Shown here in pieces: positions 1,076 to 63,207 of a stretch of 64,000 bases of DNA (positions are counted from its first letter, which is position 1; each line of letters starts with the position of its first letter). The notes under the pieces were generated by a model. It saw nothing but the letters and a program-made list of their open reading frames with translations, had not been told where the DNA came from and made no database searches. The position numbers and the translations under genes were made by a program. The stretch lies in the IMG/VR virus record IMGVR_UViG_3300029305_011606, one strand, 5' to 3'. The DNA comes from an uncultured virus (IMG/VR IMGVR_UViG_3300029305_011606) (taxonomy: Duplodnaviria > Heunggongvirae > Uroviricota > Caudoviricetes).

Positions 1076-3268
1076 ATGCCTATGCGTCAAAATACAATTG
1101 TCTGCAATGCTCTGCTCGACTATCAACTGCTGAAGGTCAAAGACAGCGACTTCCTGCAGTTGGTTTACATGCCTGTGAGCGGCGATGCAAAGATGTTTCT
1201 GGATGAGAGCCGTGTGACATGCGGTACGTGGCCTTCGGCGCAGGAATCTTCTGCCATCGCACGGTTAAATATGCCGTCAAGCGGCCTGATCCTGTTACCT
1301 GAAGCCCCGGTTAATTGTACGTCCAATGAGAGCGAAGAAGCCAATTCTCCTGAGACGATCTTTGATGAATACGAGGGTGATGTTGATGATGAGGACAATG
1401 CAGCTGCGATAAAGTCAACGAGGACTTCACAGATCCAGCCCATGCGGGATTACATTCTCCGCAACTACACGGAACGGATGCGGAAAGAACTATGCCAGCA
1501 TCTTCTATCTGGCAGACTGAGCATCAACAGCCGTGTGGTGGAGGTGTACGCGGATACCTTCAAGGTCGGAAAAATGTCGTTCTGGCGCGAGAGCACCAGG
1601 GCGTGCATGGCGTATGTGCAACTGACCGTAGATCTGGTAGAACAGGTTCGAGGGCAGGAAAGATTGGCGCGCAACAACTATGCGGCGCAGATTACCTTTG
1701 ATATGACCTGGGAGAACATCGAAACGGATGTGAGCTATGGCTATTACAGCAAGACTTCCGAGGAATACTGGGCAAAAACCATGTGGAAGCTGGATGACTA
1801 TCTGGTCCCGGTGTTCACGAAGGCCATGATCGAAGAGGAGGCATGGCTTCTCCACTGCAGGCATTTTCCGGAGCGCAGTGAAACGCCGGAAGAAATCAGG
1901 CGGGAATACGATGCCTATGAAATGGCCCGGAGAATGGGACTGGAAGTGATGTCTCTTCCGCTGAACAGCAAGAAATCTACCAAGGGTCTGCTCTTCTTTT
2001 GCGAGGACCGGGTTCAGATCGATACGGACTTGCCGGACGGGAAGAAAGGCACGGAGTGGGTGGATGTTCCCGGAGACTGTATTGTTCTCAACACCAATGC
2101 CATGCACAAGGACGAATACCAGCTGGAGGTATTCCATGAATGCATCCATTACGAGTGGCATTATATGTTCTACCGCCTGCAGGAGATGCACATCAACGAT
2201 CTGAGAAAGCTGAAAAAGACACCTATTGATAAGCAACACCAGCGACGCGCAAAGGTGTCCATCGATTACCTGGAACATCAGGCGCGTTGGGGCAGCTTTG
2301 CCCTGATGATGCCCCTTCCAGTAATGACTCCCCTGGTTGCTGACCTGATTGAGAAGTACAAGCCTTGCAGTCGCCACGCCGGCGATATGTTCTCGCGCAT
2401 CGTTCGCACGATTCACACGGATCGCAGTCACGCTATATTCCGTATCCGCGCTAGGCTGATCCAGATGGGCTATGTTGAGGCGAAAGGCGCGCTCAACTAT
2501 GTGGACGGAAAATACATTGCCCCCTTTGCTTTCTCCCGGAGGAACAGCGAAGGGAACTACACTTTTGTCATTGACCGCAAAGGGATCGCAAAGGAATATC
2601 GGGAAAATCCGGCCTTCCGTGAGCAAATTCGCACGGGACAGTATGTGTACGTGGATGGACACATCTGCGTCAACTCCCCGGAGTATGTTATGCAGACCAG
2701 CCAGGGCCCCAGGCTAACAGCATGGGCGGAGGCTCATGTGGATGAGTGCTGCCTGCGTTTCCAGAGCATCTACATCCAGAATGAGGTATCCGAGTATGAG
2801 TTTGGGCGACTGGCCTGTGACGAAGAGTATAACAAACATTACCTGAACTATGTAGACCCGGAAGGCAAACTGTCGGTGGGTGCGGCCTACCGGCAGATCC
2901 GAACCTTTTTGAACGGACTGCCCAGCGGCTTTTTTGCCGCGCTCGATTTTTTGCGGCTCGAAAAGAAGATGACGCAGGAAAAGCTGGAAGAGGTGTCGGG
3001 TGTATCCGCAAAGAAGATCGCCCGCGAAAGAAAGAAGACCAAGTGGAGCCTGAGTCGAGATGAGGTCATTGGCCTGTGCATCGGCTTGAATATGCCGCCG
3101 TGGTTATCCCAGGAGATGCTGAAGCGAGCTCATATTGCGTTGGATGATAAAGACCCGACCGACATGATGTACAGCATGATCCTGGAGCTACACTTCATGG
3201 ACAAGATCACGGATATACAGCAGCTTTTGAGAAGCGAAGGCTGTGAAGAGTTAGAACTGGCCTGTTGA
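1076..3268 (+). CDS. Large ImmA/IrrE-like metallopeptidase with C-terminal HTH
   Basis: HExxH (FHECIH) plus downstream E (LEHQA); C-terminal XRE-like HTH (MTQEKLEEVSGVS); RBS AGGAGGA. Confidence 0.75.
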   Translation: MPMRQNTIVCNALLDYQLLKVKDSDFLQLVYMPVSGDAKMFLDESRVTCGTWPSAQESSAIARLNMPSSGLILLPEAPVNCTSNESEEANSPETIFDEYEGDVDDEDNAAAIKSTRTSQIQPMRDYILRNYTERMRKELCQHLLSGRLSINSRVVEVYADTFKVGKMSFWRESTRACMAYVQLTVDLVEQVRGQERLARNNYAAQITFDMTWENIETDVSYGYYSKTSEEYWAKTMWKLDDYLVPVFTKAMIEEEAWLLHCRHFPERSETPEEIRREYDAYEMARRMGLEVMSLPLNSKKSTKGLLFFCEDRVQIDTDLPDGKKGTEWVDVPGDCIVLNTNAMHKDEYQLEVFHECIHYEWHYMFYRLQEMHINDLRKLKKTPIDKQHQRRAKVSIDYLEHQARWGSFALMMPLPVMTPLVADLIEKYKPCSRHAGDMFSRIVRTIHTDRSHAIFRIRARLIQMGYVEAKGALNYVDGKYIAPFAFSRRNSEGNYTFVIDRKGIAKEYRENPAFREQIRTGQYVYVDGHICVNSPEYVMQTSQGPRLTAWAEAHVDECCLRFQSIYIQNEVSEYEFGRLACDEEYNKHYLNYVDPEGKLSVGAAYRQIRTFLNGLPSGFFAALDFLRLEKKMTQEKLEEVSGVSAKKIARERKKTKWSLSRDEVIGLCIGLNMPPWLSQEMLKRAHIALDDKDPTDMMYSMILELHFMDKITDIQQLLRSEGCEELELAC

Positions 3269-3280
3269 AACAGTCCACCA

Positions 3281-3333
3281 AGCCCGCCAAGGATGGTCGT
3301 AATGATCGTCCCTGGCGGGCTTTTTTCTTTTTT
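3281..3333 (+). terminator. Rho-independent terminator
   Basis: AGCCCGCCA...TGGCGGGCT stem followed by a long T tract. Confidence 0.8.
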
Positions 3334-3343
3334 CAAAATGTCA

Positions 3344-3363
3344 ATTGGACAAAAGTGTCCAAT
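3344..3363. promoter_or_regulatory. Candidate operator (inverted repeat)
   Basis: ATTGGACA-AAAG-TGTCCAAT, perfect 8-bp arms upstream of the early operon. Confidence 0.45.
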
Positions 3364-3727
3364 GAAAAGGGCGAGAAATGAAGCGAAAAATGAACTGCAT
3401 TTCATATTTTGGAGAGAAAATAGTCGTATACGATAGAAATATGCTTCAAAATGCAAGTGAATACGGAAATGCCTGGCAAAATTTTCAGACAGTTTTGGGA
3501 TGGAGTTATCTGACTTCCACTGATATCATTATACCCGTGAGGTGGCCACCACACAAAACTCGAACGGTAAGGAATCCGCAGGAGGAAACGCTCCCAGCAG
3601 AGGATGGCTCAGAGGTGAGCCAAAGTCCAACGCAATAGCTATAGGTCTGCCTGTATCCCAGGTCTGCCTATGCCACAAGGAGCCCACGCTGCAGCCGTTC
3701 AGATTTCAGTGTGGGAGGTCATTTTTT

Positions 3728-8966: not shown

Positions 8967-11240
8967 ATGCCGCCCAATACAAAGAAGCCCATCATGGGTA
9001 TCGACATAGAGACCTACAGTTCCGCACCACTGCCTAAGTGCGGCGTGTATCGCTACACCGATGCGCCCGACTTTGAGATTCTTCTCTTTTCCTATGCCTT
9101 TGACGATGGTCCGATCATCACCATTGACCTGGCTTGTGGTGAACAGCTACCGCAGGAGGTGCTGATCGCGCTCGAAGATGAGAACATCATCAAGGCAGCT
9201 TGGAACGCGGCGTTTGAAAGAGTGTGCCTTTCCAAGCACCTGGGACATTGGTTGGACCCGCACCAATGGCGCTGCACCGCTGTCATGGGCGCCTATTCTA
9301 CGATGCCGCCACGCCTGGGTGATGCAGCCTATGCGATGAACGTCACCGAGAAGAAGATGGAGGAAGGCAAGGATCTCATTCGCTACTTCTCTGTCCCCTG
9401 CAAGGCAACCAAGTCCAACGGTGGTCGCACGAGGAATCTTCCCCAGCACGCTCCTGAAAAATGGGAACTGTACAAAAAGTACAACGCCCAGGACGTTGCC
9501 ACCGAGCGCGCCCTCCGCATCGAGCTGGAGAAAAATCCGCTGCCTGAAATGGAATGGGAACTATATGCGCTGGATCAGATCATCAACGACCGGGGCGTCC
9601 GGGTGGACAAGCTGCTGGTGAAACAGGCAATGGTGGTCGATTCGGTGTTTTCGGAGCAAGCGTTCCTGCGGGCCAAGGAGCTGACGGGGCTTGAGAATCC
9701 CGGTTCTGTAACACAGCTCAAGGCATGGCTGGCTGATCAGGACATTCCTATGGAGTCCCTCGCCAAGAAGATCGTGCAGGAAAAGGCGAAAACCACAGAT
9801 GGGATCGCCGGGGAACTGCTCAACCTTCGCCTGGAACTGAGTAAAACGAGTGTCAAAAAGTACGAGGCGATGGCGCGTACCGTGTGCCGGGACGGACGCG
9901 TTCACGGAATGCTTCAATTCGGAGGTGCTGCTAAGACCTTTCGTTGGGCTGGGCGACTCGTCCAGGCTCAGAATTTGCCACAGAACCATCTACCCGATTT
10001 GGAACTTGCCCGCAACATCGTGAAAACCGACAATGAGGAGATGCTTGAAATGCTCTATGGTTCCGTTCCCAATACGCTGTCGGAGCTTATCCGCACAGCC
10101 TTCATTCCCAAGGATGGTCACCATTTCATCGTTGCCGACTTCTCGGCCATTGAAGCCCGCGTCCTTGCCTGGCTTGCCGGCGAGGAGTGGGTGCTGGATG
10201 AGTTCCGTGGGAAGGGCAAGATTTACGAGGCGACCGCTTCCCGTATGTTCCATATTCCGCAGGAGACCATCGTCAAGGGAAATCCCAACTATGAATACCG
10301 CCAGAAGGGCAAGCAGGCTACACTTTCCTGCATTGCCGAGGGCATCCCGGTTCTGACCGATGAAGGTCTGATGCCCATCGAGCGAGTCAGAAAAAGCAAC
10401 CTCGTGTGGGACGGTGACCGCTGGGTGCGCCACGATGGCGTGGTCTACAAGGGTGTGCGAAAGTGCATCTCCTTTGGCGGCTTGGTGGCCACGCCCGATC
10501 ATATGGTCTGGAACGAGGGACGCTGGATGCCTTTCATCGATACGCTCCCGGATGGTGTGTTCACGCTGGAGTCCCATCGGGTTTACGACATCATGAACGC
10601 TGGTCCCAATCACTGTTTTATCGCCGCTGGCCGCAAGGTTCACAACTGTGGCTATGGCGGTGGCGTCGGTGCTTTGAAAGCAATGGGAGCAAAAATGCCC
10701 GAGGAGGAAATGCAGCCGCTGGTGGATGCGTGGCGCGCAGCCAATCCTAGCATTGTTTCCTTCTGGTATGCCCTGGGCGATGCTGCTTCGGAGATCATTA
10801 GGAATCACAATAGCGTCCGTGTGGGCAAGGTGACCGTCTACTGGCAGAACGACAGGATGTATATCCAGCTTCCTGCAGGACGGAGACTGTGCTACATCTC
10901 GCCCCGCTTTGTTCCCAATCGCTTTGGTGGCCAGGGCATCGGTTTCATGGCTCCCTCCGCCAGCGGTCAGATGGAACTCAGTGAAACCTTCGGTGGGAAG
11001 TTGGCAGAGAATGTGACCCAGTCTATTGCCCGCGACCTTCTGGCCCACGGCATGATGCAGCTTGAAAAGGCCGGGTACCGCATCGTGTTCCATGTACACG
11101 ATGAAGCCGTCATGGAAGTTCCTGATGGAACGGGTTCCTTGGAGGAGGCATGCAGGGTCATGGCTATCCAGCCGGAGTGGGCGCAGGATCTCCCGCTTCG
11201 CGCAGACGGCTACATCTGTCCGTTCTATCGCAAGGATTGA
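8967..11240 (+). CDS. Phage family A DNA polymerase containing a mini-intein
   Basis: Exo DIETYS; motif A ADFSAIEARVLA; motif B RQKGKQATLS[intein]CGYG; motif C VHDE. Confidence 0.95.
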   Translation: MPPNTKKPIMGIDIETYSSAPLPKCGVYRYTDAPDFEILLFSYAFDDGPIITIDLACGEQLPQEVLIALEDENIIKAAWNAAFERVCLSKHLGHWLDPHQWRCTAVMGAYSTMPPRLGDAAYAMNVTEKKMEEGKDLIRYFSVPCKATKSNGGRTRNLPQHAPEKWELYKKYNAQDVATERALRIELEKNPLPEMEWELYALDQIINDRGVRVDKLLVKQAMVVDSVFSEQAFLRAKELTGLENPGSVTQLKAWLADQDIPMESLAKKIVQEKAKTTDGIAGELLNLRLELSKTSVKKYEAMARTVCRDGRVHGMLQFGGAAKTFRWAGRLVQAQNLPQNHLPDLELARNIVKTDNEEMLEMLYGSVPNTLSELIRTAFIPKDGHHFIVADFSAIEARVLAWLAGEEWVLDEFRGKGKIYEATASRMFHIPQETIVKGNPNYEYRQKGKQATLSCIAEGIPVLTDEGLMPIERVRKSNLVWDGDRWVRHDGVVYKGVRKCISFGGLVATPDHMVWNEGRWMPFIDTLPDGVFTLESHRVYDIMNAGPNHCFIAAGRKVHNCGYGGGVGALKAMGAKMPEEEMQPLVDAWRAANPSIVSFWYALGDAASEIIRNHNSVRVGKVTVYWQNDRMYIQLPAGRRLCYISPRFVPNRFGGQGIGFMAPSASGQMELSETFGGKLAENVTQSIARDLLAHGMMQLEKAGYRIVFHVHDEAVMEVPDGTGSLEEACRVMAIQPEWAQDLPLRADGYICPFYRKD
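10329..10646 (+). other. 106-aa mini-intein (no homing endonuclease) in polymerase motif B
   Basis: Block A CIAEGIPVLT, block B TPDH, block F VYDI..NHCFIA, block G VHN followed by Cys+1. Confidence 0.9.
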
Positions 11241-30082: not shown

Positions 30083-31471
30083 ATGAAAAATCCCCTGAAG
30101 GGCTTGTTCAAGGCCCGAGACAAGCCCCAAAACGCTGTCAGCAGCGCATTGTCCTTTTTCTTCGGCAGTTCCGTATCCGGCAAGTCCGTCAATCCGCGAA
30201 ATGCAATCCAGATGACCACAGTGTATGCCTGTGTCAGGGTGATCGCTGAGACGATCGCCTCTTTGCCGCTGGCGGTCTATGAGGATACTGGCGATGGAAG
30301 CCATAAAGCAGTGGAACATCCGCTGTACCGACTGATCCATGATGAACCGAACACCGAAATGACCTCCTTTGTTTGGCGAGAGACCATGCTGACGCACCTG
30401 CTCCTATGGGGCAATTCTTACTGCCAGATCATCCGAAGCGGCCGGGCAAAGATCATCGGGCTGTATCCGCTGCTCCCTGACCGCATGGAGGTAGACCGCG
30501 ACAAGTCCGGCAAGCTGACCTATACCTACACCAATTCGGAAGGCCAGCAGACGCAGCTCCGTCCCGAGGATATACTGCATATTCCAGGTCTGGGCTTTGA
30601 TGGCATCGTCGGTTACAGTCCCATTGCGCTGGAGAAGAACGCCATTGGCCTTGGTATTTCCGCAGAGGAATACGGCTCGAAATTTTTCCAGAACGGGGCA
30701 CGTCCTTCCGGTGTTCTGACACACCCCAATACGGTGAAAGACCCGAAGCGTCTGCGCGATAGCTGGAACGCTGCCTATGGCGGTTCGTCCAACGGCGCCA
30801 AGGTTGCGGTGCTGGAGGAGGCCATGACCTTCTCTCCGATTTCCATGCCGAATAATGAGGCGCAGTTCTTGGAAACCCGTAAATTTCAGGTCGAGGAGAT
30901 CTGCCGCATTTATCGTGTGCCGCCCCATCTGGTGGGCAATCTGGAACGCGCCACGTTCTCCAATATTGAGAACCAGTCTATCGACTTTGCGGTACACACC
31001 ATCCGCCCCTGGCTGATCCGCATTGAGCAGGGCATGAACCGCGCTCTGTTCCCGGAAAACGAGAAGGGCAAGTTCTATGTGCAGTTCAATTTGGATGGCC
31101 TCATGCGCGGCGACTATAAGTCCCGCATGGAAGGGTACGCCATTGCCCGCCAGAACGGCTGGATGAATGCCAACGATATCCGCAATCTGGAAAACCTGAA
31201 TCCCATCCCGGAAGAGGAAGGCGGTAACACCTACCTCATCAACGGCAACATGATTCCCATTTCGCTCTGCGGTGTGTCTGCATTGCTCAATGCGGTCGCT
31301 GCTGTCGAAACGGCGGAACAGGGCGTCGGGGAAACGGAGACAGATGGCACGGAAAAGACGGAGCAGACCGATCAGCCGCCTGAGAAGCATAATGACACGA
31401 AGAAGGGACAGCCCCAGAAGAACACGAGGCGCACTACCAACAGGCGCCCTCGGAAGGAGCCAAACCAATGA
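30083..31471 (+). CDS. HK97-family portal protein
   Basis: VYACVRVIAETIASLPL, GYSPI, QFLETRKFQVEEICRIYRVPPH. Confidence 0.95.
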   Translation: MKNPLKGLFKARDKPQNAVSSALSFFFGSSVSGKSVNPRNAIQMTTVYACVRVIAETIASLPLAVYEDTGDGSHKAVEHPLYRLIHDEPNTEMTSFVWRETMLTHLLLWGNSYCQIIRSGRAKIIGLYPLLPDRMEVDRDKSGKLTYTYTNSEGQQTQLRPEDILHIPGLGFDGIVGYSPIALEKNAIGLGISAEEYGSKFFQNGARPSGVLTHPNTVKDPKRLRDSWNAAYGGSSNGAKVAVLEEAMTFSPISMPNNEAQFLETRKFQVEEICRIYRVPPHLVGNLERATFSNIENQSIDFAVHTIRPWLIRIEQGMNRALFPENEKGKFYVQFNLDGLMRGDYKSRMEGYAIARQNGWMNANDIRNLENLNPIPEEEGGNTYLINGNMIPISLCGVSALLNAVAAVETAEQGVGETETDGTEKTEQTDQPPEKHNDTKKGQPQKNTRRTTNRRPRKEPNQ

Positions 31472-33471
31472 ACGAACAACTGACTTTGGGCAGTCTCTTT
31501 GATGGGATCGGAGGATTTCCGCTGGCTGGCATTTACGCCGGCATCAAGCCTGTATGGGCTTCGGAGATCGAACCGTTCCCGATCAGGGTGACCACAAAGC
31601 GACTGCCTGAAATGATGCACCTGGGCGACATTCATCGGCTCAACGGTGCAGAGCTTCCCCCGGTGGATTTGATCACATTCGGCTCACCCTGCCAGAATCT
31701 CTCCATCGCAGGGAAGCGCAGCGGCCTTGACGGTGAGCAATCCTCACTGTTCTTTGAGGCCATTCGAGTGATCAAGGAAATGAGGGAAGCGACCAATGGA
31801 CAATATCCGAAATGGGCTGTCTGGGAAAACGTGCCGGGTGCTCTGTCCTCGGCAGAGGGAAGGGATTTCTGTGAAGTCCTCCGGCAGCTCATATCCATCT
31901 GCGAAGGAGAAGCAGATGTTCCTATGCCGGACAACGGCAAGTGGTTGTCAGCCGGGGAGATCATGGGAGATTCTTATTCCGTCGCGTGGCGGATCATTGA
32001 CGCCGCGCAGGGTTGGGGTGTCGCACAAAGACGGAAACGTCTATTTGCTGTCCTCGATCTTACAGCCGGACGCGCCGGAAAGGTTCTCTTTGAGTCCGAA
32101 GGCGTGTCAGGGTATTCTCCGCCGCGCCCAGAAGCGGGGCAAGGAGCTGCCCAAGGTGCTGAAGGATGCGCTGGAACGTCAGGCCAGGGCGGAGGAGTAA
32201 CGGCTTCAGGCTTTTGTACGGAGCACAGTGCCGACAGCCGTGGAATCGGCTACGAGGAAGAACGCTCTCCGACTCTTCGGGCAGGCGTGGTACCAGGCAT
32301 CGCCATTGAGTACAACCCAACCGACAGCCGCATTAAAATGAAGGATGATGGCATTTGCCAGACACTTACGGCGAGGTGTGGTACCGGGGGCAATACCGTG
32401 CCGCTGACGCTTGCACAGCCCGTAGCCTTTGGGATCAGTTCTGATCAGAGCAACGCCATGCTTTCTGCCAATCCCCACGCCGGGATCTATGAAGCAGAAA
32501 CCAGCCGGACCATTGACTGCAATGGCGGAACGCCGTGCTGCAATCAGGGCGGGATAGCGGTTGTAGAGACATATGCCATCCAAGGGAATATGATCGGCAG
32601 GAAGGACGAGAATGGTCCTCGCGGCACAGGGGTAAACAAGGAAGTCGCATATACGCTCAATACCATCGATCAGCAGGCCGTGTGTGCTGTGTGTCAAGAG
32701 CCCCCGGTCGCTTTTACCCAGAATCAGCGGGATGAAGTGCGTGATCTGGGTGATCAGTCCGGCGCGCTAGCTGCACAGCCCGGTATTCATCAGCAGACCT
32801 TTGTGGCGCAGCCTGCCTATTCGGTTCGTACTACAGTGGGTACTGAGATTGATGAAGAGAAATCTGCTCCCATACGAGCCAGAGACTTCAAAGATCCTCC
32901 TTTGGTGGGCGCTCCGTCGTACTGCATGACTGTGGGAAGCTATGGACATGTAGCAACAGAAAAAACGCCCACATTGGAAGCTCGCGGATATAAAGACCCG
33001 CCTGTTGTAGGAAAACCTGAGAAGGAAATCGGTCAGGCACTGCGCACCACTGTTTCAGGCAGGAATGTGTTTGGCACTTTGGAAGCAAGTATGGCTTCGA
33101 AGCAGTGGCTGGGCAATCAGGAGGCTTTCACAGGCGATTTTCATATTCTCGAACTTGATTACACTGTACGAAGGCTCACTCCCTTGGAGTGCTGCCGTTT
33201 GCAGGGCTATCCTGACGGCTGGACGGAAAATCTCGGAACAGAGGAGCCCTCAGAGCAGGAAATTGCTTGGTGGTCTGGGGTGTTCGAGGAGTGGAATGCC
33301 GCCCAGGGGAAGAACACTTCAGTAACCCGCAACCGTGTGATCAAGTGGCTCAAAGACCCGCGCTCCGATGCTGCGGAGTACAAGGCGTATGGCAACAGCG
33401 TGGCTGTCCCGTGCGTCTTTTTTGTTCTCGCTGGCATCGTGTGGGCGGAGAAAGGAGGACAAAACCCGTGA
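31468..33471 (+). CDS. DNA (cytosine-5) methyltransferase with long repetitive variable region
   Basis: LFDGIGG, GSPCQ, WENV, QRRKR, RRLTPLECCRLQG, GNSV. Confidence 0.93.
   Translation: MNEQLTLGSLFDGIGGFPLAGIYAGIKPVWASEIEPFPIRVTTKRLPEMMHLGDIHRLNGAELPPVDLITFGSPCQNLSIAGKRSGLDGEQSSLFFEAIRVIKEMREATNGQYPKWAVWENVPGALSSAEGRDFCEVLRQLISICEGEADVPMPDNGKWLSAGEIMGDSYSVAWRIIDAAQGWGVAQRRKRLFAVLDLTAGRAGKVLFESEGVSGYSPPRPEAGQGAAQGAEGCAGTSGQGGGVTASGFCTEHSADSRGIGYEEERSPTLRAGVVPGIAIEYNPTDSRIKMKDDGICQTLTARCGTGGNTVPLTLAQPVAFGISSDQSNAMLSANPHAGIYEAETSRTIDCNGGTPCCNQGGIAVVETYAIQGNMIGRKDENGPRGTGVNKEVAYTLNTIDQQAVCAVCQEPPVAFTQNQRDEVRDLGDQSGALAAQPGIHQQTFVAQPAYSVRTTVGTEIDEEKSAPIRARDFKDPPLVGAPSYCMTVGSYGHVATEKTPTLEARGYKDPPVVGKPEKEIGQALRTTVSGRNVFGTLEASMASKQWLGNQEAFTGDFHILELDYTVRRLTPLECCRLQGYPDGWTENLGTEEPSEQEIAWWSGVFEEWNAAQGKNTSVTRNRVIKWLKDPRSDAAEYKAYGNSVAVPCVFFVLAGIVWAEKGGQNP
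31796..32200 (+). CDS. Putative overprinted (alternative-frame) protein inside the C5-MTase gene
   Basis: 134-aa open alternative frame; GAGGGA 8 nt before ATG; C-terminal LSSILQ..FSLSPKACQGILRRA..RGKELP motif. Confidence 0.55.
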   Translation: MDNIRNGLSGKTCRVLCPRQREGISVKSSGSSYPSAKEKQMFLCRTTASGCQPGRSWEILIPSRGGSLTPRRVGVSHKDGNVYLLSSILQPDAPERFSLSPKACQGILRRAQKRGKELPKVLKDALERQARAEE

Positions 33472-59936: not shown

Positions 59937-60135
59937 AACTCAGCAGAACACCGGTGCCCCGCTTCTAACCCACGACCAGCTTCAGCGAGAACTGTCCTAC
60001 CGCGCCGCGATATCCGTTCTAAAGGAAATGCTGGATACAGGACTGGTTACTGCCAAGGAAATTGTCACAATTGCACCGATCCTCGCGGAAAAATTCTCTC
60101 CCGTTTGGGGCGATTTGTATCAAAGTATCGCTTGA
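59920..60135 (+). CDS. Small SHOCT-like protein
   Basis: RE..Y...L.EML..GL.T..E; RBS GGAGG. Confidence 0.65.
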   Translation: MIAVRKTQQNTGAPLLTHDQLQRELSYRAAISVLKEMLDTGLVTAKEIVTIAPILAEKFSPVWGDLYQSIA

Positions 60136-60224
60136 TATATCCCTCCAAAAGAGTGATTAATGGTCACGGAAACCGGGCAGCCCGATGCGCTTCGGCTTCC
60201 AATACCGAGCGAGGAGTGAAAAGA

Positions 60225-61580
60225 ATGGAGATCACCAGGGTTGACAGGGGTACGGTCGTTCACAGGGTCAAGCAGACGCAAAACGAGTTACCCAGGCGCA
60301 AGCGTGTCGCCGCATATTGCAGAGTCTCATGCGGAAAGGACGCCATGCTGCACTCGCTTTCCGCACAGGTCAGCTATTATAATCAATACATCCAGAAGTG
60401 TCCTGGCTGGGAATACGCCGGGGTGTATGTAGACGAAGCGATGACGGGCACAAAGGATGATCGTCCACGTTTTCAGCAGATGTTGGAAGATTGCCGAGCA
60501 GGACGAATCGATATGATTATCACCAAGAGCATCAGTCGGTTTGCACGAAACACGGTTACCATTCTGGAAACCGTCCGTGAGCTGAAGGCCATAGGCGTGG
60601 ACGTTTACTTTGAAGAAGAACACATTCATTCGATGAGCGGGGATGGTGAGCTGCTGCTTACCCTTCTCGCTTCTTTTGCGCAGGAGGAAAGCAAGAGTGT
60701 ATCCGACAACTGCAAGTGGCGCATCCGTAAGGATTTTGCGGAAGGCAAACCCATGAACCTCATGCTCTTATACGGATACAAAACCGTGGATGGGAAGATC
60801 GTGATCGATGAGGATGAGGCTACTATCGTCCGCAGGATTTTCCGCGAGTATCTGGATGGGATGGGCAGTGTGCAGATCGCAAAGAGGCTGGCTCACGAAC
60901 AGGTACCCAAGCGGCTGGGCGGCGAATGGTCGTCAACCTATGTGGTTGAAGTGCTGACCAACGAAAAGTATACCGGCGACTGCCTTCTGCAAAAGACCTT
61001 TGTGGAAGATCACCTTTCAAAAAAGCGGCACCGCAATATCGGCCAGCTGAACCAATATTACGCAGAAAATACCCATCCGGCGATCATTGACCATGAGACT
61101 TACGAACGCGCCCAACAGATTCTTGCCGAGCGTAGAGAGTTTATCAACGTTCGAAAGTCTACGGTCGCCCGTTATCCCTTTACCAGCAAAATCGTTTGCG
61201 GCAACTGCGGCGCGAACTACAACCGCAGGACACGCTCTACCGGGCGCAACTCCACCCCGCGCTATACCTGGCAATGCCTCACCTATACGAGAAAGGGCAA
61301 GCGATACTGCCCCGCTAGCCAGATTCCTGAAGAAGTGCTGGAGGTACTCACCTGCGAGGCATTAGGAGTCAGCGAAGTGACGGATGAGGCCATGAAGCAG
61401 TTGGAAGTCATCCGAGTGGTTGACAGCGACCGCTTACAGTTTGTTTTCAAGGACGGTCACACAGAGGAGCGGCAATGGGCATGGGAATCCAGAGCCAGCT
61501 CATGGACTCCTGAGATGCGGCAGAAAGCCAGTGAGCAGATGAAGATTGAATCGGCAAGAAGGAGGCAGCGCCATGAGTGA
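60225..61580 (+). CDS. Large serine recombinase 1
   Basis: AAYCRVS, TKSISRFARN, AQEES, NEKY.GD, CGNCG Zn ribbon. Confidence 0.93.
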   Translation: MEITRVDRGTVVHRVKQTQNELPRRKRVAAYCRVSCGKDAMLHSLSAQVSYYNQYIQKCPGWEYAGVYVDEAMTGTKDDRPRFQQMLEDCRAGRIDMIITKSISRFARNTVTILETVRELKAIGVDVYFEEEHIHSMSGDGELLLTLLASFAQEESKSVSDNCKWRIRKDFAEGKPMNLMLLYGYKTVDGKIVIDEDEATIVRRIFREYLDGMGSVQIAKRLAHEQVPKRLGGEWSSTYVVEVLTNEKYTGDCLLQKTFVEDHLSKKRHRNIGQLNQYYAENTHPAIIDHETYERAQQILAERREFINVRKSTVARYPFTSKIVCGNCGANYNRRTRSTGRNSTPRYTWQCLTYTRKGKRYCPASQIPEEVLEVLTCEALGVSEVTDEAMKQLEVIRVVDSDRLQFVFKDGHTEERQWAWESRASSWTPEMRQKASEQMKIESARRRQRHE

Positions 61581-63207
61581 GTCGGCAATTTCCAGCGTAT
61601 CCACCGTCGCCGGTGGAACAAGAGTACGGATGATCCCAGCCACCATGCAGCGGTATGCGGCGGCAAGACCGCTGACGGCCACCCTGCGCGTTGCTGCCTA
61701 CGCTCGCGTCAGTACGGACGAAGAAGAACAGCAGACCTCCTATGAAGCCCAGGTGGACTACTACACCAAAAAGATTCGTGAGAATCCTGAATGGATTTTC
61801 GTGGAGGTGTACGCGGACGAGGGCATCACAGGCACCAGTACCAAGCGGAGAAAGAACTTCAACCGCATGATCGAGGACGCGATGGCCGGTAAGATCGACA
61901 GGATCATCACCAAGTCGGTCAGCCGTTTTGCCAGAAATACGGTGGACACGCTGACTACCATCCGTATGCTGAAAGAAAAAGGCGTGGGCGTGACCTTTGA
62001 GAAGGAGAACATCGACACGCTGGACAGCAAGGGCGAACTGCTGATTACCATCATGTCCTCTCTGGCGCAGGAGGAAAGCCGATCCATTTCGGAAAACGTT
62101 ACCTGGGGCTGGCGCAAGCGCATCTCGGATGGTAAGGTTTCTGTGGGATATGCCCACTTCCTTGGCTATGAGAAAGGCACAGGCGAAAAGGATAACCAGA
62201 TGCGGATTGTTGAGGACGAGGCGCGAATCGTCCGTGAGATATACGCCCTCTTTCTGGACGGACAGACGCCCTCCAGCATCGCGGCCATCCTGACGGAGCG
62301 CAGCATCCCGACCCCGGCCGGGAAGGTGAAATGGACGAACAGTACGGTACGATCCATCCTGACCAATGAAAAATACAAAGGCGATTCCCTTCTGCAAAAG
62401 ACCTTCAAGCCTGATTTTCTGAGCAAAACGCAAGTAAATCGCGGCGAAGTGCCTCAGTTTTACGTAGAGAACAGCCACCCTGCCATTGTTACACCGGAAG
62501 TATTCGATCTGGTGCAGTATGAGATGACGCGCCGTAGTCAGAAGGGTCGGCACACCAGCGCGGCCAGTATTTTCTCCAATCGCTTAGTTTGCGGTGGGTG
62601 CGGCGCGTACTTTGGCAGCAAGGTTTGGCACAGCAACGACCCTTACCGCTGCGTTGTGTGGCGGTGTAATAGGAAGTACGACAAAGGCGCAGAGCGTTGT
62701 CATACGCCCCATGTTCGAGAGGAAGAGGTCAAGACTGCTTTCCAGAAGGCCCTTGAGCAGATGCTTGAACGAAAGCAAGAGATCATTGCAGCCTACGAGG
62801 CAGTGATCATGTGCCTGACCAATACGGATAAGCTGAACCGTGAGGCTGAACGGATTCAGACAGAACTGGACAGCTTTTATCTGGAGCTTAACCAGATGGT
62901 GCGCAGAAACGCTGAAATGGTGCAGGATCAGGATGAGTACAACCGATCTTTCGATGCTTTGACCGCCAAATGCGAAAGGCTCAAGGAGCAGCAGCGCAAA
63001 ATCAACGATCAGCTGGCTGAGAAAGCCGGCAGAAAGATGAAACTGGAAGCCTTCATTGAGAGGATCAGGAATACAGATGGGCTTACTGAGTTTGACGAGC
63101 ATCTGTTCGCGGGAACGGTTGAACAAGTTATCGTCAATCGCAGCGAATCGAAAAACAAAAAAAGGCTGACCTTCTGTTTCAAGGATGGAACAGAGGTCAC
63201 CGTATAA
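61573..63207 (+). CDS. Large serine recombinase 2
   Basis: AAYARVST, TKSVSRFARN, AQEESRSISEN, CGGCG, coiled coil. Confidence 0.94.
   Translation: MSESAISSVSTVAGGTRVRMIPATMQRYAAARPLTATLRVAAYARVSTDEEEQQTSYEAQVDYYTKKIRENPEWIFVEVYADEGITGTSTKRRKNFNRMIEDAMAGKIDRIITKSVSRFARNTVDTLTTIRMLKEKGVGVTFEKENIDTLDSKGELLITIMSSLAQEESRSISENVTWGWRKRISDGKVSVGYAHFLGYEKGTGEKDNQMRIVEDEARIVREIYALFLDGQTPSSIAAILTERSIPTPAGKVKWTNSTVRSILTNEKYKGDSLLQKTFKPDFLSKTQVNRGEVPQFYVENSHPAIVTPEVFDLVQYEMTRRSQKGRHTSAASIFSNRLVCGGCGAYFGSKVWHSNDPYRCVVWRCNRKYDKGAERCHTPHVREEEVKTAFQKALEQMLERKQEIIAAYEAVIMCLTNTDKLNREAERIQTELDSFYLELNQMVRRNAEMVQDQDEYNRSFDALTAKCERLKEQQRKINDQLAEKAGRKMKLEAFIERIRNTDGLTEFDEHLFAGTVEQVIVNRSESKNKKRLTFCFKDGTEVTV

Follow-up and report, generated by a model that had tools for sequence, protein, structure and literature searches.

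The naturally split intein gp41-1, with 88 + 37 = 125 amino acids (aa), Ser at the +1 position and a solved fused cis form (PDB 6qaz/6riz), is called the smallest intein in papers, and the review by Mills, Johnson and Perler (2014, PMC4031507) describes natural mini-inteins 'as small as 134 residues'. We analysed a 64,000-nucleotide (nt) stretch of an uncultured virus of the Caudoviricetes (IMG/VR record IMGVR_UViG_3300029305_011606), the whole of which is called the window here, and found that its family A DNA polymerase gene carries a 106-residue insert at 10329..10646 (+). The insert is very probably a contiguous, endonuclease-free class-1 intein in motif B, and standard class-1 cis-splicing would restore the polymerase. 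In comparison with gp41-1, the window intein is 19 residues shorter, contiguous and followed by Cys+1; the two share 17-19% identity, and at the split/endonuclease site the window intein has by far the shorter connection. The mini-inteins of Mills et al. are likewise contiguous, endonuclease-free and natural, but 28 residues longer. The engineered Mtu RecA mini-intein (PDB 2in0, 3ifj) has 139 aa, 33 more than the window intein; its endonuclease was deleted in the laboratory, and its host protein and site are different. The intein behind the 134-residue figure is, we assume, Mth RIR1.

The splicing domain of the intein in the APSE-1 phage DNA polymerase (P45) is related to that of the window intein, with 47% identity over residues 1-66, and the two phage polymerases are themselves related. 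The P45 intein differs from the window intein in its site (after …YGGKS, running from C to …IVHN, before CENICQAAARD) and in being a long form with an endonuclease gene, the nested P46 HNH endonuclease coding sequence annotated in RefSeq inside P45. Presumably the P45 intein is listed in InBase. The 309-310-aa alleles, which are the presumed ancestors, share with the window intein the insertion point (after …LS or …LA, running from C to HN, before CGYGG) and the terminal splicing blocks, at about 50-63% identity, and differ from it by about 200 extra residues with an HNH gene in the +1 frame, all of which the window intein has lost. An out-of-frame HNH layout was reported in 2025 for actinophage 'non-canonical' inteins in a preprint by Gosselin, Arsenault and Gogarten (bioRxiv 10.1101/2025.01.02.630785). 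We found no description of the nested-HNH layout at this polymerase site in the open-access literature, and open-access full text described neither an intein below 125 aa nor any intein at this site. The window intein appears to belong to a known class (class-1 mini-inteins) and to a family related to the APSE-1 polymerase intein, in which it is an extreme structural variant by its size and its trimmed second unit.

An insert in motif B of a phage DNA polymerase

The precursor gene (8967..11240, +) encodes 757 aa including the intein, and was assigned from its open reading frame (ORF), Pfam (PF00476, E 8.5e-18) and PHROG (PHROG 17 'DNA polymerase', E 5.2e-130) as a family A polymerase with an N-terminal 3'-5' exonuclease-like part; 7997 homologues were found. 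The insert is 318 nt long and in frame, forming precursor residues 455-560. Its Cys1 codon is TGC at 10329, its Asn106 codon is AAC at 10644-10646, and the Cys+1 codon TGT follows at 10647-10649. A check of sequence and ORF confirmed the coordinates, the length of 318 bp or 106 aa and all motifs that an earlier reading of the DNA, made from the sequence only, had given. The computed N-extein has 454 aa (8967..10328, +) and the C-extein 197 aa (10647..11240, +), and the junction region was invariant in an alignment with 12 homologues. The insert was present at this junction in 11 of the 12, the sole exception being P0018, a polymerase of 661 aa whose exteins are 87% identical to those of the window.

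When the insert was taken out, the two halves joined as RQKGKQATLS-CGYGGG, identical to P0018 there. The sequence-only reading had proposed that removal restores motif B, and P0018 makes exactly the join QATLS-CGYGGG in the alignment. That reading had also treated alignment of the segment to intein-free polymerases as evidence against an intein, and P0018 turned out to be without exactly these 106 residues. An in-frame insertion with exact boundaries is thus absent from an orthologue, and also from a metagenome contig: in public contigs from gut metagenomes, a related allele leaves out exactly 318 nt (10327 to 10646), which represents an empty site. Two further contigs skip 327 nt with 9 letters replaced, and a loose end after 10331 continues directly into GGCTACGGCGGC.... 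These empty alleles suggest that an intein without an endonuclease was lost precisely, or that recombination brought in an empty allele.

By mapping onto E. coli Pol I, we place the insert between the Lys and the Tyr that are conserved in motif B. Judged from the sequence, the insert interrupts the nucleotide-binding helix (motif B) of the polymerase, so the unspliced precursor is predicted to be inactive. The frame 8967..11240 is uninterrupted and without a stop, and the locus is therefore neither a naturally split intein nor a fractured gene. An intron was ruled out by the in-frame insert, the predicted HINT fold and the splicing residues. A profile of 23 related inteins matched the window stretch with E 7.7e-43 from end to end (profile positions 1-123, no insert), and in the six frames of the window it found no second intein of the same family; chance cannot account for such a match.

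Splicing residues and predicted fold

The four splicing blocks were compared with 161 unique delimited family inteins, among which 37 long rows were unaligned in the C-terminal part. Block A (CIAEGIPVLTDEG, 10329..10367, +), whose first residues CIAEGIPVLT are intein residues 1-10, holds the nucleophile Cys1, present in 161/161. Block B (GLVATPDHMVW, 10479..10511, +) holds Thr55 and His58 as T55-P-D-H58, with Thr in 160/161 and His in 161/161. In block F (RVYDIMNAGPNHCF, 10578..10619, +), which lies in the stretch R84-VYDIMNAGPNHCF-97 of the intein, Asp87 was conserved in 124/124 and His95 in 113/124 aligned rows. Block G (KVHN, with the C-extein Cys+1 at 10635..10649, +) was assigned from the sequence and family counts; Asn106 was found in 124/124 aligned rows and His105 in 116/124, and Cys+1 is also present in the insert-free P0018. 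An N-terminal nucleophile Cys1, Thr-x-x-His in block B, Asp and His in block F, His-Asn in block G and Cys+1 together place the insert in class 1. Class 3 inteins have no N-terminal nucleophile and carry a Trp-Cys-Thr triplet, in which the block F Cys acts instead; here residue 1 is an invariant Cys, and Asp87 occupies the block F position. Bacterial intein-like (BIL) domains are Hint domains that belong to variable, non-conserved proteins and usually have no +1 nucleophile for ligation, and the window insert does not correspond to this description.

Two cysteines, Cys46 (10464-10466) and Cys96 (10614-10616), replace the family consensus Val46/Arg96. They occur together in 5 of the 161 unique family inteins, four of which form the 106/112-aa clade, and could make a disulfide or repack the smaller core.

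AlphaFold2, run with a 43-sequence alignment of the window and related loci, gave a model with a mean predicted local distance difference test (pLDDT) of 96.4, a predicted template modelling score (pTM) of 0.86 and no residue below 70. Foldseek against PDB returned 21 matches at E<=0.001, and among the matches listed all were inteins except one Vint (Hint) domain. The predicted structure matched solved inteins over 105 of the 106 residues, which on these matches therefore lie on the common HINT core; each intein chain among the matches listed has at least 125 residues. The family sequence profile also reached a solved DnaE intein (E 7.4e-5). The structure prediction suggested by the sequence-only reading supported a HINT fold. 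In profile searches, which it had also suggested, our own 23-intein profile matched, and the intein models of Pfam and NCBIfam stayed below their cut-offs or gave no match.

Between blocks B and F, the alignments (A2/A3) and the models of the 106- and 123-aa forms showed a shortened helix (residues 69-72) and a 7-residue loop (73-79) at 10533..10565 (+), where relatives carry 17 to about 200 extra residues or an endonuclease gene. His58 and Arg84 are separated by just 25 residues, with neither an endonuclease domain nor a nested gene, as in a mini-intein. The model and alignments thus bore out the earlier description of an insert with no homing endonuclease and almost no linker. A hidden endonuclease gene was ruled out, since 318 bp would not accommodate one and the profile match is gapless. 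The model of a 123-aa allele (L081; pLDDT 96.6) had the same secondary structure over residues 1-60. From the 123-aa to the 106-aa model, the helix goes from 7 to 4 residues, the next segment from 17 to 7, and the strand ends are slightly trimmed. On these models, the 106-aa form is without 17 residues exactly around the endonuclease-insertion point in comparison with the 123-aa relative. By analogy with the description of gp41-1, the trimmed region would be the second pseudo-symmetric unit of the fold.

Alleles at the site, their origin and the prophage

A search with the 106-aa query by phmmer in 1.84 billion representatives found 2547 proteins at E<=1e-3, of which 1334 reached E<=1e-10, and in most of the 2547 the match fell into two pieces, an N part (about residues 1-68) and a C part. 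We inspected the best 150 of the 2547 intein matches and the best 120 of the 7997 polymerase homologues. In the window polymerase and these best 120 homologues, the intein at the motif B site had 141 aa in 70 cases, 310 aa in 33, 123 aa in 10 and 106 aa in three, while lengths of 105, 112, 140 and 307 aa and no insert occurred once each. In species-representative genomes the commonest form at the site was 309 aa. The other small alleles at the site had 105 (P0015), 109 (P0143), 110 (L019) and 112 aa (P0093), those of P0143 and L019 being in more distant polymerases. The P0015 intein is 53% identical to that of the window, and the sister of the P0015 polymerase carries a 310-aa intein (support 1.0), so it suggests, as far as sequences go, an independent miniaturisation. 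In GenBank phages, 177 of 50,697 records matched, all at <60% identity, and the two full-length matches spanned 420 nt (140 aa). Three of the 177 were inspected: H1 (309 aa), H7 (140 aa) and H14 (APSE-1, at the other site).

The intein frame was open in all 17 loci with a 309-aa (927-nt) intein (L098, L024 and L043, and others among L102-L137). Over the middle 570 nt of these loci, amino acid identity was 0.63 in the +1 frame vs 0.31 in the intein frame. In L098 the intein lies at 2779-3705 and a nested +1 ORF at 2924-3727 encodes an HNH endonuclease (PHROG 374, E 7.5e-24). The +1-frame conservation and the HNH match therefore identify the long form as an intein with an out-of-frame homing-endonuclease gene. 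We consider the 106-aa intein a probable deletion derivative, on sequence and model comparison, of a widespread same-site intein of usually 141 or 309-310 aa.

Two further intein sites were seen in the polymerase family, one after ...RTGRW/F (ending SN before SGR) and one after ...KIVEN (ending SN before CTQ). Loci with these sites are P0093, P0006, L081 (1429-2628), L092 (1534-1941), L120 and L144 (2501-3760), and some polymerases have two inteins. In L144, L081, L092 and L120 the first-site intein (that after ...RTGRW/F) is interrupted halfway by in-frame stops, so these may be split inteins or broken genes.

The exact polymerase of the window was found on 9 contigs, the longest of 110 kb. 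The cluster to which it belongs at 90% comprises 10 polymerases of 752-760 aa, each with the 106-aa intein, which with P0004 makes eleven distinct polymerases. Intein/extein identities to the window are 90/91% for P0003, 96-100/95-100% for eight others, 79/85% for P0004 and 64/72% for P0093 (112 aa), and on these sequences the intein appears about as constrained as the polymerase. Contigs from four runs span the intein without an insertion or deletion; 32 of the 40 listed nucleotide differences were synonymous, including 3/3 in the intein. P0018 is the sole insert-free polymerase among the closest 121 and nests inside the 106-aa clade (supports 0.995, 0.998); the 10327/10646 joints come from metagenome runs X4 and X6.

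At the level of DNA, 14 public runs contained at least half of the words of the stretch, and 20 rows with all or part of it came from 15 studies, which covered animal gut or faeces as well as some isolates; one run may be the source of the record itself. No RNA run was among the public runs listed. A 29-kb IMG/VR viral contig (L001/L138), identical over the polymerase, was the sole DNA match above 63% identity; the metagenome scan gave no close DNA relatives, and among 258 genomes of one order 10 matched, the best at 63%.

The window is a siphovirus-like temperate prophage that looks complete at about 63 kb, with genes for a repressor, an exonuclease, a Gp2.5-like single-stranded-DNA-annealing protein, the polymerase, a primase-helicase, a second helicase, ParB-like proteins, methyltransferases, terminase, portal, capsid, tape measure and tail proteins, and two serine recombinases. 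The two tandem large serine recombinase genes (60105-63207, +) stand at one end of the window and the repressor with a UmuD-like C-terminal part (1-957, -) at the other, and these ends are likely the prophage limits. A 667-aa C5 cytosine DNA methyltransferase is encoded at 31468-33471 (+); Pfam covers its residues 7-143 (profile 3-132 of 324), PHROG spans 1-658 with repeated stretches, and several target-recognition domains or an insertion could lie in its long middle part. In the polymerase itself, the N-extein (+) contains GIDIETYS (8997-9020), the motif A-like FIVADFSAIEARVLAWLAG (10125-10181) and RQKGKQATLS, the first half of motif B (10299-10328); the C-extein (+) starts with CGYGGGVG, the second half of motif B, and contains the motif C-like VFHVHDEAV (11085-11111). 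The motif names follow those of Pol I.

Splicing, rival explanations and significance

The data above establish the insert and its limits, its residues, relatives and conservation, and its predicted fold; splicing and its rate we infer from the residues, the fold and the conservation. The polymerase would be translated as the 757-aa precursor, in which the insert would fold into a bare HINT core. An N-S acyl shift at Cys1, assisted by Thr55 and His58, would give a thioester that Cys+1 attacks; cyclisation of Asn106, assisted by His105 and Asp87/His95, and an S-N shift would then yield ...QATLS-CGYGGG..., a restored motif B and a 651-aa polymerase, with the spliced junction contained in the tryptic peptide ...QATLSCGYGGGVGALK. 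The ancestor would have been a 309-310-aa same-site intein with an out-of-frame HNH homing-endonuclease gene in its middle, and deletion of this gene and of ~17 more residues (part of the helix, the insertion loop and the strand ends) would have left the 7-residue loop. Having lost the endonuclease, the element would be inherited vertically, and it would be retained since any imprecise loss would ruin an essential motif.

Several points weigh against efficient splicing or against the intein assignment itself. In gp41-1, splicing fell drastically once two linker residues were deleted, so the very short loop might slow or impair the window intein. The best Pfam match of the insert was Vint, with E 0.046 and 14 bits against a cut-off of 27, and NCBIfam models gave no match to the insert in the window protein. 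The fold evidence is a predicted model, built with an alignment of longer relatives. The evidence for selection inside the intein is thin: three differences are listed there, 40 of 112 differences are listed overall, and the contigs represent mixed populations from metagenomes. As to the Pfam result, only one of the 23 inteins of alignment A2 (105-141 aa) was matched, weakly, by Hint_2 (E 0.0083), and the miss by Pfam and NCBIfam is a detection failure, not a defining biological feature. The gp41-1 result and the lack of an RNA run among the public runs listed are what would be expected if the insert descended from a genuine intein and over-deletion had left it splicing-dead or very inefficient, with the polymerase inactive and the prophage decaying or reliant on host replication. 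We consider this improbable, given that the catalytic residues are all intact, that the 106-aa length is kept in eleven distinct sequences with intein divergence about equal to extein divergence, that most listed differences are synonymous, that the prophage gene set looks complete, and that in P0093 the small form is still present at 64% identity. A non-splicing domain tolerated by the polymerase as an extra loop has a parallel in phage methylases, for which one paper (PMC11855218) reports in-frame non-splicing insertions hiding an HNH gene. The complete set of splicing residues with a predicted HINT fold, the splitting of the motif-B helix between invariant residues, the end-to-end profile match and the absence of a hidden gene in an insert of 318 nt, which is too short for one, make this explanation the most remote of those considered.

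The preferred reading, an active class-1 mini-intein, leaves two further questions, those of regulation and of size. The sequence-only reading, which held in each of its testable parts, had also suggested a conditional switch, for which we found nothing in support beyond the clade-specific pair Cys46/Cys96. An intein gated by redox through this pair together with Cys1 and Cys+1 would fit the restriction of the pair described above, and disulfide-trapped inteins are known (PDB 3nzm, 'redox trap', among the Foldseek matches). On the other hand the pair may merely repack the smaller core, and the host, presumably a gut anaerobe, would have a reducing cytoplasm, so that such gating also seems improbable, if anything slightly more so than a splicing-dead intein. 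The suggestion that the window intein is among the smallest natural cis-inteins held in so far as it lies below the 125 and 134 aa published in the open-access literature; it is not unique, as the 105-aa allele P0015 exists. It is possible, though we think it unlikely, that the intein is real and active while such small inteins are already catalogued and its size is no record, as the 105-, 109-, 110- and 112-aa alleles were readily found. Against this stand the natural minimum of 134 residues in the 2014 review (PMC4031507), the absence of a solved intein chain below 125 residues among the structure matches listed, the open-access full-text searches that gave no smaller intein, and the blindness of Pfam to the family, which makes surveys likely to miss it. 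We cautiously favour the view that the 105-112-aa inteins at this site are fully active and the smallest natural protein-splicing elements known, about 15% below gp41-1.

Inteins are workhorses of protein engineering in ligation, cyclisation, tag removal and the split delivery of large genes, and size counts throughout. If the view that we favour is true, the hairpin/loop at the endonuclease-insertion site of HINT would be dispensable, the fold would have a new lower size limit, and a more compact ready-made scaffold for cis- or split inteins would be at hand. One site offers a natural allele series of 105, 106, 109, 110, 112, 118-141 and 309-310 aa, in which the minimisation was done by evolution. 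Since the series includes compensating changes, it would give a direct way to ask what the minimum working HINT size is and which residues compensate. The family, a common one in gut prophages, is invisible to Pfam and NCBIfam. Because the curated models miss the insert, automatic annotation names such genes plain 'DNA polymerase', and censuses are likely to under-count such inteins.

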